From Escherichia coli (GTDB taxonomy: Bacteria; Pseudomonadota; Gammaproteobacteria; Enterobacterales; Enterobacteriaceae): 64,000 nt of DNA. Position 1 is the first letter of the stretch. Every line of letters starts with the position of its first letter. The DNA is taken from the NCBI RefSeq assembly GCF_003334355.1, contig NZ_QOWP01000004.1; one strand, written 5' to 3'. Shown here one piece after another: positions 23,607 to 35,225 of this stretch. The notes under the pieces were generated by a model, which was not told the origin of the DNA, ran no database searches, and saw nothing but the letters and a program-made list of their open reading frames with translations. The position numbers were made by a program, and so were the translations under genes.

Positions 23607-25163
23607 TTACTCATCTTCATCGTGCGCCGGTTGCTCTTTAACAATGCGAACCAGATCAACACGATAATCATTGGCTTCAATGATGGTGATATGCAGTGGC
23701 CCTACATCAATCACATCGCCCACACGGGGAATGTGACCATTTGCCGAGATCACGAGGCCCGCGACCGTCGCGATATCATCGTCATCGGCAAGGTGCTCAA
23801 CATCAAGCGCCTGCTGCAAGGCATGCAAATCTGTACCGCCTTTTACCAGCCAGCCGTCACCATCAGTAATGATTTCCGGCGTTTCGTCAGCGTCCGGGAA
23901 TTCACCCGCAATGGCTTCCAGCACATCCAGCGGCGTGACCAGACCTTGTACCACACCAAACTCGTTGGTCACGATAACAAAGCTCCCGCGAGCACGACGC
24001 AGCACGCCCAACAGGTTGATCGGATCGAGGGTTTCCGGGACGATAATCGCCGGAGACGCCGAAGCAATCGCCGCCACATCAACGCCCTCTTCCAGCGCCA
24101 CCAGCAGTTCTTTAGCACGTACAATACCGATGATTTCATCCAGTTCACCGCGACATACCGGGAACAGACTGTGCGGTGAAGAGAGCAGTTGCTCGCGGAT
24201 TTCATCGACCCCGAGATTAGCGTCAACCCAGCTTATTTCACCGCGCGGCGTCATGATCCCGCGCAGAGAACGCGACGCCAGCGTCAGTACGCCGTTAATC
24301 ATGTAACGTTCTTCTTCGGCAAATGCACCTTCCGGGATCGGCATCGGCATCGGGTTATCGGCATCGTGCTGAACATTGGCCTGACGTTTCCCGCCCATCA
24401 AACGCAGGATGGCATCGGCAGTACGCGCTCGCAGCGGCAAAGTCGACTGGTGGCGAATAAAGTTGCGACGCGCAATCTGGTTAAACACTTCGATGATGAT
24501 CGAGAAGCCAATCGCGGCATACAGGTAACCTTTCGGAATGTGGAAACCGAAACCTTCTGCCACCAGACTCAGACCAATCATTAACAGGAAGCTCAGACAG
24601 AGCACCACCACCGTGGGGTGCTGGTTAACGAATCGCGTCAGCGGTTTGGATGCCAGCAACATAACCGCCATCGCAATCACTACCGCCGCCATCATCACCG
24701 GCAGATGGTTAACCATCCCTACTGCAGTAATTACCGCATCCAACGAGAAGACGGCGTCAAGGATGACAATCTGTGTGACGACCACCCAGAAACTGGCGTA
24801 GCCTTTACCGTGGCCGGAATCATGATCGCGGTTTTCCAGCCGTTCATGCAGTTCGGTTGTTGCTTTGAACAGCAAGAATATCCCCCCGAACAACATAATC
24901 AGGTCGCGTCCGGAGAAGGAGAAATCCATGACGGTAAATAGCGGTTTGGTCAGCGTGACCATCCATGAAATCAGCGACAGCAGCCCCAGACGCATAATCA
25001 GCGCCAGTGATAACCCCAGCAAACGCGCTTTATCGCGTTGTTTTGGCGGCAGTTTGTCAGCAAGAATGGCGATGAAGACCAGGTTATCGATACCCAGCAC
25101 AATTTCGAGAACAACAAGCGTGAGTAGCCCCGCCCAAATTGAGGGGTCCATTAAGAATTCCAT
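23607..25163 (-). CDS. yoaE: TerC-family membrane protein with CBS/CorC domains, YoaE
   Basis: 518 aa; polytopic N-terminus plus C-terminal CBS/CorC-like region; recognised as YoaE. Confidence 0.92.
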
Positions 25164-25625: not shown

Positions 25626-26597
25626 GTGACCATTGCTATTGTTATAGGCACACATGGTTGGGCTGCAGAGCAGTTGCTTAAAACGGCAGAAATGCTGTTA
25701 GGCGAGCAGGAAAACGTCGGCTGGATCGATTTCGTTCCAGGTGAAAATGCCGAAACGCTGATTGAAAAGTACAACGCTCAGTTGGCAAAACTCGACACCA
25801 CTAAAGGCGTGCTGTTTCTCGTTGATACATGGGGAGGCAGCCCGTTCAATGCTGCCAGCCGCATTGTCGTCGACAAAGAGCATTATGAAGTCATTGCAGG
25901 CGTTAACATTCCAATGCTCGTGGAAACGTTAATGGCTCGTGATGATGACCCAAGCTTTGATGAACTGGTTGCGCTGGCAGTAGAAACAGGCCGTGAAGGC
26001 GTGAAAGCACTGAAAGCCAAACCGGTTGAAAAAGCCGCGCCAGCACCCGCTGCCGCAGCACCAAAAGCGGCTCCAACTCCGGCAAAACCAATGGGGCCAA
26101 ACGACTACATGGTTATTGGCCTTGCGCGTATCGACGACCGTCTGATTCACGGTCAGGTCGCCACCCGCTGGACCAAAGAAACCAATGTCTCCCGTATTAT
26201 TGTTGTTAGTGATGAAGTGGCTGCGGATACCGTTCGTAAGACACTGCTCACCCAGGTTGCACCTCCGGGCGTAACAGCACACGTAGTTGATGTTGCCAAA
26301 ATGATTCGCGTCTACAACAACCCGAAATATGCTGGCGAACGCGTAATGCTGTTATTTACCAACCCAACAGATGTAGAGCGTCTCGTTGAAGGCGGCGTGA
26401 AAATCACCTCTGTTAACGTCGGTGGTATGGCATTCCGTCAGGGTAAAACCCAGGTGAATAACGCGGTTTCGGTTGATGAAAAAGATATCGAGGCGTTCAA
26501 GAAACTGAATGCGCGCGGTATTGAGCTGGAAGTCCGTAAGGTTTCCACCGATCCGAAACTGAAAATGATGGATCTGATCAGCAAAATCGATAAGTAA
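25626..26597 (+). CDS. manX: PTS mannose-specific EIIAB component
   Basis: GTG start 25626 after GGAGG SD; 323 aa with Ala/Pro-rich hinge (AAPAPAAAAPKAAPTPAKP). Confidence 0.95.
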   Translation: MTIAIVIGTHGWAAEQLLKTAEMLLGEQENVGWIDFVPGENAETLIEKYNAQLAKLDTTKGVLFLVDTWGGSPFNAASRIVVDKEHYEVIAGVNIPMLVETLMARDDDPSFDELVALAVETGREGVKALKAKPVEKAAPAPAAAAPKAAPTPAKPMGPNDYMVIGLARIDDRLIHGQVATRWTKETNVSRIIVVSDEVAADTVRKTLLTQVAPPGVTAHVVDVAKMIRVYNNPKYAGERVMLLFTNPTDVERLVEGGVKITSVNVGGMAFRQGKTQVNNAVSVDEKDIEAFKKLNARGIELEVRKVSTDPKLKMMDLISKIDK

Positions 26598-29832: not shown

Positions 29833-30638
29833 TAAGAACGCTGCCAGAGGTGAATATTAAAGTCCGTCTGGCAGTCGAACACTTCTTTTGCTGCCAGTGT
29901 TTGCCAGACTTCTGGCTTCGCACGCCAGGCAAACGGCGTCATCTGCAATAATGCGACGGCTTCATCACCGCGAAGACGCATCGGATAACACAACTCCGCA
30001 CTCTGCTGTAATGTAAAACCTTCCAGTTGTTCTGCATGAGGTGCATGAAGATGTACTTCATTGTAAATCAGCCCCTTCAGCTCCATCAAATGTCGCGGTC
30101 CCGGCGTGGCAGTAATGACCCAGCCGCCGGGCTTCACTACTCGTGCTAATTCTTCTGCTTTACACGGCGCGTAAATACGTATTATGGCGTCCATACTGGT
30201 ATCGGAAAACGGCAAACGGTGGCTGGAAGCGACACAAAAAGTGACCTGCGGATAGCGTTTCGCCGCCGCTTTTATCGCTACCTTCGAAACATCCAGACCA
30301 AACGTGGTGATTTCGGGCAACGCATCGGCAAATGCGTGTGTGTAATACCCTTCACCACAGCCAATATCCAGCACCGCCGTGGCCTTATCATCAAGCCGTT
30401 CCCTCAGTTGGGCGACAATTGCATCACGCAGCGGCTGATAATGTCCGGCATCTAAGAATGCGCGGCGTGCTTGCATCATTTCCGCGCTGTCGCCCGGATC
30501 ACGAGACCGTTTATGCTGAACGGGCAGCAGATTGACATACCCTTCTTTCGCCATATCAAACTGATGTCGCTGGGGACAGATATAGCTGTTTTTTTCACGC
30601 GAAAGAGGCTGATGGCAAAGTGGACAGGAAAAAGACAT
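29829..30638 (-). CDS. rlmA: 23S rRNA m1G745 methyltransferase RlmA
   Basis: 269 aa; N-terminal Zn-finger cysteines (CPLCHQPL...YICPQRH) plus SAM-MTase motif ([11 protein letters not shown]). Confidence 0.93.
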
Positions 30639-30730
30639 GACAACTCCGGCAGGATACTAAAGGCCGCAAGTGTAACGCGAATCACGCGGCGGGCAAATAT
30701 CCGAACGCCAGGAGCGAAGATAAAGCATAG

Positions 30731-30757
30731 TAAAAAGCCTCGCATTCGACGAGGCTT
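30731..30757 (-). terminator. Rho-independent terminator after cspC
   Basis: Minus strand: gcctcg-tcgaatg-cgaggc hairpin followed by a T-run. Confidence 0.6.
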
Positions 30758-30803
30758 TATAGCGAGATTGAAGCGTATTCACACTTCAGATCAGTGGATT
30801 CGA

Positions 30804-31013
30804 TCAGATAGCTGTTACGTTAACAGCTGCCGGACCTTTCTGGCCGTCCTGAATTTCGAACTCAACGTTCTGACCTTCAGCCAGAGTTTTGAAGCCATTA
30901 CCCTGGATAGCGGAGAAGTGTACGAACACGTCTTTGCTGCCATCAGCCGGAGTAATGAAGCCAAAACCTTTAGACTCGTTGAACCACTTAACCTGACCTT
31001 TAATCTTTGCCAT
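30804..31013 (-). CDS. cspC: Cold-shock-like protein CspC
   Basis: 69 aa with RNP motifs (KGFGFI, VFVHF). Confidence 0.95.
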
Positions 31014-31025
31014 TTGAAAAATTCC

Positions 31026-31169
31026 TTAGATTGTTTTCTTCGCCCGCAGGCATAACATAGATAAAACTGACACATTACTGCATGAGGCACCAATATAAGG
31101 CTCGGCAGAGAAGCGGTATTCAACGTCAACGTGTTTACTCAGGACTTCTTTACTGAAAATGCCACACAT
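31026..31169 (-). CDS. yobF: Small protein YobF (47 aa), upstream gene of the yobF-cspC operon
   Basis: Minus-strand translation [47 protein letters not shown]; stop 12 nt before the cspC start; below the ORF-track cutoff. Confidence 0.75.
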
Positions 31170-31837
31170 AAACAGAACTGTACCTCGTTTAACCCGAAAT
31201 CTGTTATCACATACAACGTTAATTATGGCAAGCCATTTTTAAACATGTCTCGATCAGACGCACAAATCTCGATACGTCTTCCACTTTTTTTGCACACTTA
31301 TGCAACGGAATACGCGCCGATATATCATTGTGCTTAACCTTGCCAGTTCAGGCAGATACTTAAACTGGCGTAGTTTCTAACATAGTTCAATAAGTTCAGT
31401 TGTTCCAGGCCAGTGGGAGAAGTTATTACATAGTGCGTGCAATATCACATTTTTTGCTATGCAATGAATAAAAAGTTATATCACTTTTTCTCATAAAACA
31501 GTCAGTTAACGGCTATCAATTACCCTAAAGAGAAGTCAATCCCCAAAGGGATTGAAAATTTAAAATAAGAAAAATTGATGAATGAGCAAAAAATCAAGAG
31601 AGAAACGTTTCGCTAATAAATAATACCACGCTTAATCACAAATCCGATGTAAACATCCTAATAAATTAATGAGGAAAATATCTTTTTCTGATATCCCGTT
31701 ACGCAAATAAATAATATGATAATTATTTGAAGTCAGACCAGAGTTTTAATTTGAAGCAGTTGCACCATGGCAGTGCGTATAATCAGGATGAATTGAGTAA
31801 CCCTTCAACGACGGGGTTACTCAAGATTGAGGAAGGA

Positions 31838-32125
31838 TTATCGTTCGGCGACCAGACGAATAATATCTTCGTCTTCAACCGATTTTTGACTCTCAACGGT
31901 CTTTTTATCTGCTTTCTCAGGTTCGTTTGCTTCGCACAAACGACGTAACAGTGCATTTTGACGTTTTTGCTGATCCAGCAACGCCTCAAGCAGTTCAATC
32001 TGTTCGTTAGTCCGAGAACTGGCACGATTGATAAAAAACCACAAGATGAGCCCGATAAGAAGAACCACCACCGATACAACCAAAGACGCAATGTTCATCA
32101 CGCCTGAATTTACAACTTCGTTCAT
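31838..32125 (-). CDS. yebO: Small membrane protein YebO
   Basis: 95 aa; one N-terminal TM helix then a charged tail. Confidence 0.88.
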   Translation of the reverse strand: MNEVVNSGVMNIASLVVSVVVLLIGLILWFFINRASSRTNEQIELLEALLDQQKRQNALLRRLCEANEPEKADKKTVESQKSVEDEDIIRLVAER

Positions 32126-32199
32126 TTCACCACCTCTGAGTAGAGGTGCTATTCTACCACTGCTGGAGAGGAAGAAAATCTAGTGCTGAAAAAATGATA

Positions 32200-32343
32200 T
32201 CACCACGGGATAAACTGGTTAATGGCACAAATTCCGCTGAAAAATTGTACATCCTGATCGCACATCATGTTGAATACCTGCGCCCAAAGCAGCAAGCAAG
32301 CCAACACCACGACAACCAGAACGACCCATCGAAACTTTTTCAC
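32200..32343 (-). CDS. mgrB: PhoQ feedback inhibitor MgrB (47 aa)
   Basis: Minus-strand translation (M)[49 protein letters not shown] start at 32341-32343 with GGAG SD 6 nt upstream. Confidence 0.8.
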
Positions 32344-32501
32344 TCCAATCTCCGCTTCACCTACCTTATGTCATTAAACTAGCATGCGTTAGTTAAACAG
32401 CGCCTAACTATGTCGATATTCGTGCTTTTTCGGAATGAGTAGCTTGCTTCAGCGCATATTGCCGCTACGATTAAGCGAACATAAAAAGAGAAGAGGTTGT
32501 A

Positions 32502-32741
32502 ATGCGATTCATCATTCGCACAGTTATGCTGATAGCACTGGTATGGATAGGATTATTACTCAGCGGATATGGCGTTTTGATTGGAAGCAAAGAGAATGCC
32601 GCAGGATTAGGTTTGCAATGTACCTATCTGACTGCCAGAGGCACCAGCACGGTACAATACTTGCACACTAAAAGTGGTTTCTTGGGGATAACAGATTGCC
32701 CACTGTTACGTAAAAGCAATATCGTGGTCGATAATGGTTAA
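32502..32741 (+). CDS. yobH: Small membrane protein YobH
   Basis: 79-aa ORF MRFIIRTVMLIALVWIGLLLSGYG...; recognised as YobH. Confidence 0.85.
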   Translation: MRFIIRTVMLIALVWIGLLLSGYGVLIGSKENAAGLGLQCTYLTARGTSTVQYLHTKSGFLGITDCPLLRKSNIVVDNG

Positions 32742-32883
32742 GGGTAATAAATAACCAGATTCTCACTCATGAGTAAAATATTCTTATAGCAAGCGCGTTT
32801 AATATAACGCACCTTCAACTTTATTTTTCTCATGCTAAATAAAGAACCTGTCTGTTTGATATTCCGACAGGTTCTTACTCTCA

Positions 32884-33675
32884 TCAGAACGGATAGTCGT
32901 GATAACCCATTTGGGCAGAAATTTTGCGCGCTGCGGTATGCAACATTGCGACATATTCCTGTAAACGCTCTTCAGAGAAACGCAACGTCGGGAAGGAGAT
33001 GCTCAAACCGGCAATGACCACGCCAAAGCGATCAAATACCGGTACCGCAATGCATCGCAGCCCTTCTTCCTGCTCTTCGTTATCTTCGCCATACCCCTGC
33101 TCGCGCACCTGGTCCAGAACGGGTAATAACGCTTCTGTACTGGTGATGGTCCGCTCGGTACTGCGTTTATACTCCACGCCCTCAAGAATTTGCTTCACTT
33201 CATCGCGATCGCGCCATGCCAGCAGTACCTTACCAATCGCGGTGCTGTACAGCGGATTACGACGCCCAATCCGTGAATACATGCGCAAATTGTACATAGA
33301 GTCAATTTTGTGAATGTAAACAATACTGTCTTCGTCCAGTGCGCCGAGGTGGATAGTTTCTTTGGTCAGGCGGGAGATCTCACGCATCTGGATATCTGCG
33401 CTACGAATTAAATCGACGTTTTGTAACGCGCGAGCGCCCAGTTCAAACAATTTCAGGGTCAGGGAATATTTCTCCGACTCCCCTTCCTGCGCCACATAAC
33501 CTAAGGTTTTCATGGTCTGTAAAAAGCGATAAACGGTGCTTTTTGACATCATGACGCGCTGCGACAGCTCGGTTATCCCTATTTCGCGCTCTTCACCCAG
33601 CGCCTGCAAAATGCCAAAAACTTTTAGCACGGAAGATACAGAATCAGGCTGTTTATCCAGATCTGCGTTAGCCAT
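32884..33675 (-). CDS. kdgR: IclR-family transcriptional regulator KdgR
   Basis: 263 aa; N-terminal HTH and IclR-type effector domain. Confidence 0.93.
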   Translation of the reverse strand: MANADLDKQPDSVSSVLKVFGILQALGEEREIGITELSQRVMMSKSTVYRFLQTMKTLGYVAQEGESEKYSLTLKLFELGARALQNVDLIRSADIQMREISRLTKETIHLGALDEDSIVYIHKIDSMYNLRMYSRIGRRNPLYSTAIGKVLLAWRDRDEVKQILEGVEYKRSTERTITSTEALLPVLDQVREQGYGEDNEEQEEGLRCIAVPVFDRFGVVIAGLSISFPTLRFSEERLQEYVAMLHTAARKISAQMGYHDYPF

Positions 33676-33851
33676 TTATCACCTCATTGCGAGTGTTTTA
33701 TAAAAATCAGAACTGTTTTTTATTATAATTTCGCACCAGGGTGGTCGCAATCCATCTTTTGCCGGTTAGTTACAATTCTGCGACATCCACCGTGAATATC
33801 AGTGCTAGAATCATACCCCTGTTGATTATTCACCAAAGATATAAAATTCCT

Positions 33852-35225
33852 ATGCCAAAAGTTCAGGCCGACGGCCTGCCATTGCCCCAGCGATACGGTG
33901 CGATATTAACCATTGTGATTGGTATTTCGATGGCTGTCCTTGACGGCGCAATCGCCAACGTCGCCCTGCCAACAATCGCCACAGACCTTCATGCCACGCC
34001 AGCCAGTTCCATCTGGGTAGTGAACGCCTATCAAATCGCCATTGTCATCTCCCTGCTCTCGTTTTCGTTTCTGGGCGATATGTTTGGCTATCGACGTATT
34101 TATAAATGCGGTCTGGTCGTTTTTCTGTTGTCTTCACTGTTCTGCGCCCTTTCTGATTCGCTGCAAATGCTCACCCTTGCGCGTGTCATACAAGGTTTCG
34201 GCGGTGCAGCGTTGATGAGCGTTAATACCGCACTTATCCGCCTGATCTATCCACAACGTTTTCTGGGGAGAGGGATGGGCATAAACTCGTTTATTGTTGC
34301 CGTCTCTTCTGCTGCCGGGCCGACAATTGCTGCAGCAATCCTCTCCATCGCATCCTGGAAATGGTTATTTTTAATCAACGTACCGTTAGGTATTATCGCC
34401 CTGCTTCTGGCGATGCGTTTTCTGCCACCCAATGGTTCTCGCGCCAGTAAACCCCGTTTCGACCTGCCCAGCGCCGTGATGAACGCGTTAACCTTCGGCC
34501 TGCTTATCACTGCGTTGAGTGGTTTCGCTCAGGGGCAATCGCTGACGTTAATTGCTGCGGAACTGGTGGTAATGGTTGTTGTTGGTATTTTCTTTATTCG
34601 CCGCCAGCTTTCTCTTCCCGTACCGCTGCTACCGGTGGATTTACTGCGTATCCCGCTGTTTTCACTTTCTATTTGCACATCTGTTTGCTCTTTCTGCGCA
34701 CAAATGCTGGCAATGGTTTCCCTGCCCTTTTACCTGCAAACCGTGCTCGGGCGTAGTGAAGTCGAAACAGGTTTACTTCTGACACCGTGGCCGTTAGCAA
34801 CGATGGTGATGGCTCCGTTGGCAGGCTATTTGATTGAACGCGTACATGCAGGATTGCTGGGTGCTCTAGGGTTGTTCATCATGGCTGCGGGGCTTTTTTC
34901 CCTGGTTCTGCTGCCCGCGTCACCTGCGGATATCAATATTATCTGGCCGATGATCTTATGTGGCGCTGGATTTGGCTTGTTCCAGTCACCCAATAACCAC
35001 ACCATTATTACCTCCGCTCCTCGCGAACGTAGCGGTGGAGCCAGTGGCATGTTAGGAACGGCTCGTCTACTGGGTCAGAGTAGCGGCGCGGCACTGGTGG
35101 CGCTGATGCTAAATCAGTTCGGTGATAATGGTACGCACGTTTCGCTGATGGCTGCGGCTATTCTGGCAGTGATTGCTGCCTGTGTCAGTGGTTTACGTAT
35201 CACTCAGCCACGATCCAGGGCATAA
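33852..35225 (+). CDS. yebQ: MFS transporter YebQ
   Basis: ATG 33852 gives 457 aa (MPKVQADGLPLPQRYG...); 14-TM type MFS. Confidence 0.9.
   Translation: MPKVQADGLPLPQRYGAILTIVIGISMAVLDGAIANVALPTIATDLHATPASSIWVVNAYQIAIVISLLSFSFLGDMFGYRRIYKCGLVVFLLSSLFCALSDSLQMLTLARVIQGFGGAALMSVNTALIRLIYPQRFLGRGMGINSFIVAVSSAAGPTIAAAILSIASWKWLFLINVPLGIIALLLAMRFLPPNGSRASKPRFDLPSAVMNALTFGLLITALSGFAQGQSLTLIAAELVVMVVVGIFFIRRQLSLPVPLLPVDLLRIPLFSLSICTSVCSFCAQMLAMVSLPFYLQTVLGRSEVETGLLLTPWPLATMVMAPLAGYLIERVHAGLLGALGLFIMAAGLFSLVLLPASPADINIIWPMILCGAGFGLFQSPNNHTIITSAPRERSGGASGMLGTARLLGQSSGAALVALMLNQFGDNGTHVSLMAAAILAVIAACVSGLRITQPRSRA

Follow-up and report, generated by a model that had tools for sequence, protein, structure and literature searches.

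mgrB is the commonest chromosomal colistin-resistance locus in Klebsiella, and trimethoprim adaptation in E. coli targets it early. Promoter and start-codon variants in clinical isolates are easier to read when the PhoP box, the -10 element and the start codon have been placed correctly. The product, MgrB, is a 47-amino-acid feedback inhibitor of PhoQ (PMC2789325). In Salmonella, the promoter of the orthologous gene, yobG(mgrB), carries a PhoP box, ACAGTTACTCCTGGTTTAA, in direct orientation and 12 nt from the -10 hexamer TAATTT, as well as a second, reverse-oriented PhoP box, GTTTTTAGGAATGATTCAC, further upstream (PMC3335776). The box and the transcription start were defined there by DNase I footprinting and S1 mapping, which identified a single PhoP-dependent start site; by S1 mapping, 5 nt separate the -10 from +1 and the leader measures 26 nt (PMC3335776). 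The E. coli mgrB promoter is in use as an EMSA positive control and as a PhoP reporter, and E. coli authors put its PhoP site upstream of -46, that is, upstream of position 32389 in the sequence analysed here. For Klebsiella, the literature gives GTG as the mgrB start codon, and a G3A (GTG>GTA) "initial codon" mutation is reported to leave MgrB non-functional in colistin-resistant isolates (PMC9334626, PMC6101004).

An initial annotation of the window (the whole 64,000-nucleotide stretch of DNA that was analysed) had assigned mgrB a GTG start and had tentatively read two upstream GTTTAA hexamers as PhoP half-sites. Below, we show how this locus compares with the systems described above. The region is very probably a PhoP-activated promoter followed by a short leader and the mgrB coding sequence. 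Gene identity, the start codon, conservation and the geometry of the box and -10 were computed here; PhoP binding and the transcription start are drawn from the Salmonella literature, and MgrB function likewise comes from published work.

Gene identity and genomic setting

The 371 nt around mgrB find matches of 95-100% identity in 5424 of 5426 complete E. coli genomes, and the window is E. coli chromosome. Three genes make up the immediate setting:

32200-32343, minus strand: mgrB coding sequence, 47 codons plus TGA (open reading frame list, RefSeq, NCBIfam)
32502-32741, plus strand: yobH, the divergent neighbour of mgrB
32125-31838, minus strand: yebO, the flanking gene downstream of mgrB

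At the coordinates given by the initial annotation, the minus-strand open reading frame 32343..32200 encodes a 47-residue protein. RefSeq/PGAP gives the same 144-nt coding sequence, with the same GTG start, as mgrB, "PhoP/PhoQ regulator MgrB" (WP_000714550.1). The protein scores 89.9 bits with the NCBIfam MgrB equivalog model NF007635, whose cutoff is 40, and its residues 1-47 pair with profile positions 1-47; Pfam PF13998 is present on MgrB homologues. The family traits seen in the alignment, namely a basic N-terminus, one hydrophobic segment and a conserved C-terminal ...IPW motif, are all found. On the function described in the literature, the product is a small inner-membrane peptide that would inhibit PhoQ and thereby damp the PhoQ/PhoP magnesium sensor.

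Conservation was assessed across 81 loci, comprising 80 mgrB loci, one per Enterobacteriaceae species, together with the window, and across three additional, more distant MgrB loci taken from metagenome assemblies. MgrB is 47 amino acids long at 78 of the 81 loci. In the gene order yobH <> mgrB > yebO, a divergent yobH lies upstream in 79/81 and yebO downstream in 81/81; among the distant loci, yebO lies downstream in all three and yobH upstream in two.

Several database labels for this family deserve comment. In NF007635 and in some RefSeq records, MgrB goes under the name "regulatory lipoprotein" (VLAC, residues 13-16). According to Lippa & Goulian (2009), who argued against lipidation, an N-terminal GFP-MgrB fusion is uncleaved and functional. 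Cys16 is replaced by Gly in two Superficieibacter-like MgrB homologues. A 36-codon ATG open reading frame (MGRSGCRG...) lies out of frame within mgrB (32219-32329, minus strand). Several database "MgrB" entries that start MGRSGCR are frameshifted hybrids of this out-of-frame reading frame and the true frame, and they look like assembly or annotation artefacts.

The PhoP box and the extended -10

The promoter features and the conserved islands of the intergenic alignment are as follows:

32394-32410, minus strand: PhoP box TAGTTA-GGCGC-TGTTTA, placed by conservation and homology with the Salmonella footprint
32410-32405, minus strand: distal half-site TAGTTA, followed by the spacer GGCGC (32404-32400)
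32399-32394, minus strand: proximal half-site TGTTTA, containing the core of the first GTTTAA (32398-32393)
32376-32384, minus strand: extended -10 TGcTAGTTT, with TG at 32384-32383 and the hexamer TAGTTT at 32381-32376
32374-32379, minus strand: second GTTTAA, comprising the four 3' bases of the -10 hexamer followed by AA
32344-32370, minus strand: predicted 5' leader of about 26-27 nt, placed by positional homology with Salmonella yobG
32425-32451, minus strand: conserved upstream block (island 1), tgaaaCAAgt..AtgATTCctAAAa, from column conservation in the 81 loci
32411-32392, minus strand: conserved island 2, AcaGTTAgccgcgGTTTAag, containing the PhoP box
32386-32376, minus strand: conserved island 3, caTG.TAaccT, the -10 region
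Conserved island 4, from the alignment of the 81 loci: cGGAGagtGGAGTGA

Both GTTTAA hexamers are present on the minus strand, at 32398-32393 and 32379-32374, and the initial annotation was right to flag their spacing, which is 13 nt against the canonical 5. This anomaly vanishes because the true partner of the first GTTTAA is TAGTTA, 11 bp further upstream. The corrected pair is a 6-5-6 direct repeat in an 11-bp register with the canonical 5-nt spacer, and it fits (T/G)GTTTA-N5-(T/G)GTTTA with two mismatches (15/17 specified positions). The proposed half-site pair thus survives in its first member, which falls within the proximal half-site, and fails in its second, which overlaps the -10. The operator also shifts in part from where it had been placed: the partner TAGTTA lies outside the interval originally noted and is homologous to the footprinted Salmonella ACAGTTACTCCTGGTTTAA.

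The distal half-site is weak, matching the consensus at 4/6 positions, and hits to the box pattern with two mismatches abound in the window (28, against 15 expected). Because such hits are common, the box rests on position, conservation and the orthologous footprint, and not on pattern score. The alignment of the yobH-mgrB intergenic region across the 81 loci resolves into four conserved islands among unconserved spacers. Overall, the conserved columns read GTTA-N7-GTTTA, then TG-n-TA-nnn-T, then GGAG-N6-GTG, and the spacers between them vary in sequence. The proximal NGTTTA occurs at all 81 loci, with a distal NNGTTA exactly 11 bp upstream of it in 75. Between TGTTTA and the -10 hexamer TAGTTT lie 12 nt (ACTAACGCATGC), a spacing that is the same across the 81 loci, and the -10 itself keeps its TG in 79/81 and a TAnnnT hexamer in 72/81. 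The three distant loci also carry a recognisable box, with a -10 12 nt past the proximal GGTTTA or TGTTTA; two of them match the box pattern exactly, and the third (L085) fits only if its distal hexamer is moved by 1 nt. By analogy with Salmonella, and consistent with secondary statements in the literature, PhoP would bind the E. coli promoter at 32410-32394, and transcription of mgrB would start at approximately 32370-32369.

A scan for consensus sigma-70 promoters and terminators across 32100-32560 returned no -35/-10 pair at the mgrB promoter and no terminator; a missing -35 hit is what would be expected of an activator-dependent promoter. An Rfam scan of 30000-34000 gave nothing at mgrB or its leader, and the leader together with the first codons folds no better than shuffled sequence (z = 0.16), so neither analysis suggests an RNA-level element at the leader. 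A full-text literature search with the literal promoter strings retrieved unrelated papers only.

The second GTTTAA

The second GTTTAA has no part in PhoP recognition. Since both hexamers exist and agree with the half-site consensus in its core, they could be imagined as jointly forming a PhoP operator of non-canonical type, 13 nt apart; we consider this highly improbable and already largely refuted. Measured start to start, the two lie 19 bp apart, which fits neither the 11-bp PhoP register nor two turns of the helix (~21 bp). Only 2/81 species retain the downstream hexamer, the commonest sequences at its position being ACCTGG (27) and TCCTGG (9), whereas an upstream partner, TAGTTA or CAGTTA, stands at the 11-bp register in 75/81. 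An activator bound at the downstream hexamer, over the conserved -10, would moreover clash with RNA polymerase, and both the Salmonella footprint and the site given by E. coli authors (upstream of -46) lie upstream of it. The frequency of such pairs is also at chance level. GTTTAA-N(5-20)-GTTTAA is expected 0.25 times per window and was found twice, a count that 5/100 shuffles reach; the remaining hit is the genuine PhoP box of yoaL-yoaE, whose spacing is canonical, so the mgrB pair, as one event against 0.25 expected, is not beyond chance.

Alternatively, the second GTTTAA may be an Escherichia-specific extra half-site that becomes occupied when PhoP-P is abundant, occluding the -10 and limiting mgrB transcription. 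Its GTTTA core is perfect, it is found in E. coli and one close Escherichia species, and PhoP promoters with extra boxes do exist (architectures II-V; PMC3335776). This is nonetheless very unlikely: the hexamer stands alone, with no partner 11 bp to either side (CGCATG upstream, CATAAG downstream), E. albertii has ATTTAT at the same position, and the mgrB promoter has been described as giving the highest fluorescence within a collection of PhoP-regulated reporters, which does not suggest self-limitation. With the box at TAGTTA-N5-TGTTTA, variants at 32405-32410 would hit the operator, and changes in the second GTTTAA would fall at or next to the -10, not in the operator.

The GTG start codon

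Two features define translation initiation at mgrB:

32341-32343, minus strand: GTG initiation codon, the first start codon after an in-frame TGA 27 nt upstream
32350-32353, minus strand: Shine-Dalgarno sequence GGAG, 6 nt (ATTGGA, 32349-32344) before the GTG

The minus-strand sequence around the start and promoter reads ...gcGGAGattggaGTGaaaaagtttcgatgg..., and the spacer between GGAG and GTG is ATTGGA, exactly the 6 nt given by the initial annotation. That annotation also stated that the frame contains no ATG. This is correct between the upstream TGA and the GTG, where no other ATG, GTG or TTG occurs, and incorrect further downstream, where codons 26 and 27 (32268-32263) read ATG ATG.

As judged from sequence and conservation, the GTG start call is right, and it is already annotated and published. 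It is supported because the RefSeq coding sequence, the NCBIfam alignment over residues 1-47, conservation, the loci in which a stop codon abuts the start and the Klebsiella GTG>GTA reports all agree. The start position is GTG in 80 of the 81 loci, TTG in one (Kluyvera cryocrescens) and ATG in none, and the homologous codon is GTG at all three distant loci. GGAG is found at exactly 6-nt spacing in 75/81. No alternative in-frame start exists upstream in 64/81 loci, and where gene callers have extended the open reading frame upstream, the extended products show V at the start position, as in ...ESGVKKLRW. Third-position, codon-like variation begins immediately 3' of the GTG in the 81 loci.

It is extremely improbable that translation begins elsewhere. 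The two candidates are an ATT three codons upstream of the GTG (32349-32347) and the internal ATG pair at codons 26-27. Bacteria rarely initiate at ATT; here the codon abuts GGAG with zero spacer, and it is unconserved, being replaced by AGT or TGT in other species. In eight species the GTG is immediately preceded by a stop codon. The in-frame ATG ATG at 32268-32263 offers an internal candidate, and initiation there would lose the transmembrane segment. Conservation instead runs from the GTG onward: K3 is invariant, residue 2 is always K or R, W6 is kept in 79/81 and R5 in 74/81, and the hydrophobic segment is likewise conserved.

Is the GTG maintained by selection?

The persistence of GTG as the mgrB start raises the possibility that it is maintained by selection and not by accident. 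On the sequence comparisons, we regard this hypothesis as conceivable and, on balance, rather doubtful. The start codon opens with G at 80 of the 81 species loci and at all three distant loci, and never with A. Nearby synonymous G/A sites are fully mixed: codon 3 is AAG or AAA in a ratio of 40:41 across the 81 loci, and the Gln codon 15 positions before the stop is CAA or CAG in the same ratio, 40:41. Codon 2 (32338-32340, minus strand) is only ever AAA or AGA (81/81), never AAG or AGG. That its third base is always A suggests a nucleotide-level constraint just past the start codon.

Two other explanations for the constant G were considered. Fixation of the GTG through an overlapping GGAG (as GGAGTG) was rejected, as positions -3 to -1 vary (GGA in 54, GTA in 12, TGA in 8, and others). 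A structural reason for G at +1 is unsupported because the leader fold, described above, does not improve on shuffled sequence.

In its detailed form, the hypothesis holds that a weak GTG, a fixed Shine-Dalgarno spacing and an A-rich codon 2 might together set the amount of MgrB made per transcript. If so, the gain of PhoQ/PhoP negative feedback would follow from the MgrB dose per transcript, and selection would act against an ATG allele, which would repress PhoQ too strongly. Within the window, manX (start 25626-25628, plus strand) is also annotated with a GTG start and is a possible comparison gene for start-codon conservation.

Proposed mechanism

The arrangement of these elements is consistent with the following model. 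A head-to-tail dimer of phosphorylated PhoP would occupy the direct repeat TAGTTA-N5-TGTTTA (32410-32394), at the place usually taken by a -35 element. Positioned one helical turn from the extended -10, PhoP-P would stand in for the missing -35 and recruit RNA polymerase. The transcript would then begin about 5-7 nt past the -10, with a leader of about 26-27 nt bearing the GGAG, and ribosomes would initiate at the GTG (32343-32341), 6 nt past the GGAG, to produce the 47-residue MgrB. Finally, MgrB would repress PhoQ, closing the negative feedback loop (PMC2789325).

Flanking regions and other features of the window

Positions 32443-32425, within island 1, align to the second, reverse-oriented PhoP box that was footprinted in Salmonella yobG, and the Salmonella sequence GTTTTTAGGAATGATTCAC is the reverse complement of island 1 at the aligned Salmonella locus. 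On the plus strand, island 1 points at the divergent yobH. The intergenic region between yobH and mgrB is 156-168 bp long at 78 of the 79 loci (of 81) that bear yobH. A role for the reverse box in driving yobH was set aside, since, according to a Salmonella study, yobH does not appear to be under PhoP/PhoQ control.

Downstream, the spacer between mgrB and yebO (32126-32199, minus strand) is 74 nt long in 50 of the 81 species, and the adjacency of the two genes holds even in the distant homologues. The spacer contains a conserved extended -10-like element, TGgTAGAAT (32159-32151), and a conserved Shine-Dalgarno sequence, GAGGTGG; no terminator-like site was detected 3' of mgrB. It is therefore probable that yebO is served by a promoter of its own within this fixed-length spacer. 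A hairpin, CACCTCT-ACTC-AGAGGTG (32131-32148, minus strand), contains the yebO Shine-Dalgarno sequence in its 3' arm. As a conserved regulator it was rejected, its arms being unconserved outside Escherichia, and it is probably incidental. Beyond yebO, an Rfam match to the cspA thermoregulator (30729-31189, minus strand; 135.7 bits against a gathering score of 78) spans the yobF-cspC region.

A second PhoP box in the window lies upstream of yoaL-yoaE (yoaE, 23607-25163, minus strand). This box, TGTTTAACTCCCGTTTA (25359-25343, minus strand), is near-perfect and canonical, with one mismatch, and is followed after 12 nt by the -10 TATAGG at about 25330-25325, the same geometry as at mgrB. In Shigella, yoaE is a PhoP target by EMSA and footprinting (PMC5775216).

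Comparison with known systems

The gene, its start codon and its regulator are all already known, and the analysis corrects one half-site of the operator assignment. E. coli K-12 mgrB (yobG, b1826) has the same coding sequence and the same protein, WP_000714550.1. The K-12 derivative TG1 matches the window exactly at the PhoP box, the -10, the Shine-Dalgarno sequence and the GTG. Across the 371 nt compared, TG1 and the window differ at two single bases, 32441 in the upstream block and 32355 in the leader, neither of which touches any of these elements. mgrB of Klebsiella pneumoniae shares the GTG, the GGAG 6 nt upstream and the layout of box and extended -10; it differs in having the -10 TATCCT and TCCTGG in place of the second GTTTAA.

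Salmonella enterica yobG, assigned to "architecture II" by Zwir et al. (2012; PMC3335776), shares with the window a direct box 12 nt from a weak -10 and a leader of about 26 nt, and in both a homologous position further upstream holds a reverse-oriented site. The -10 hexamer is TAATTT in Salmonella and TAGTTT in the window, and the half-sites are CAGTTA/GGTTTA and TAGTTA/TGTTTA, respectively. The reverse upstream site is more degenerate in E. coli, where the candidate reads CTTTTTCGGAATGAGTAGC, than in Salmonella (GTTTTTAGGAATGATTCAC).

Compared with the canonical PhoP box of mgtA, phoP and yoaE, the GTTTAA pair fails on spacing, and the distal hexamer of the corrected mgrB pair is off consensus at two positions. 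The corrected pair nevertheless shares with the canonical box the 6-5-6 arrangement, the direct orientation and the 12-nt distance to the -10, as in architecture I/II; the distance agrees with Table 1 in Zwir et al. (2012; PMC3335776).
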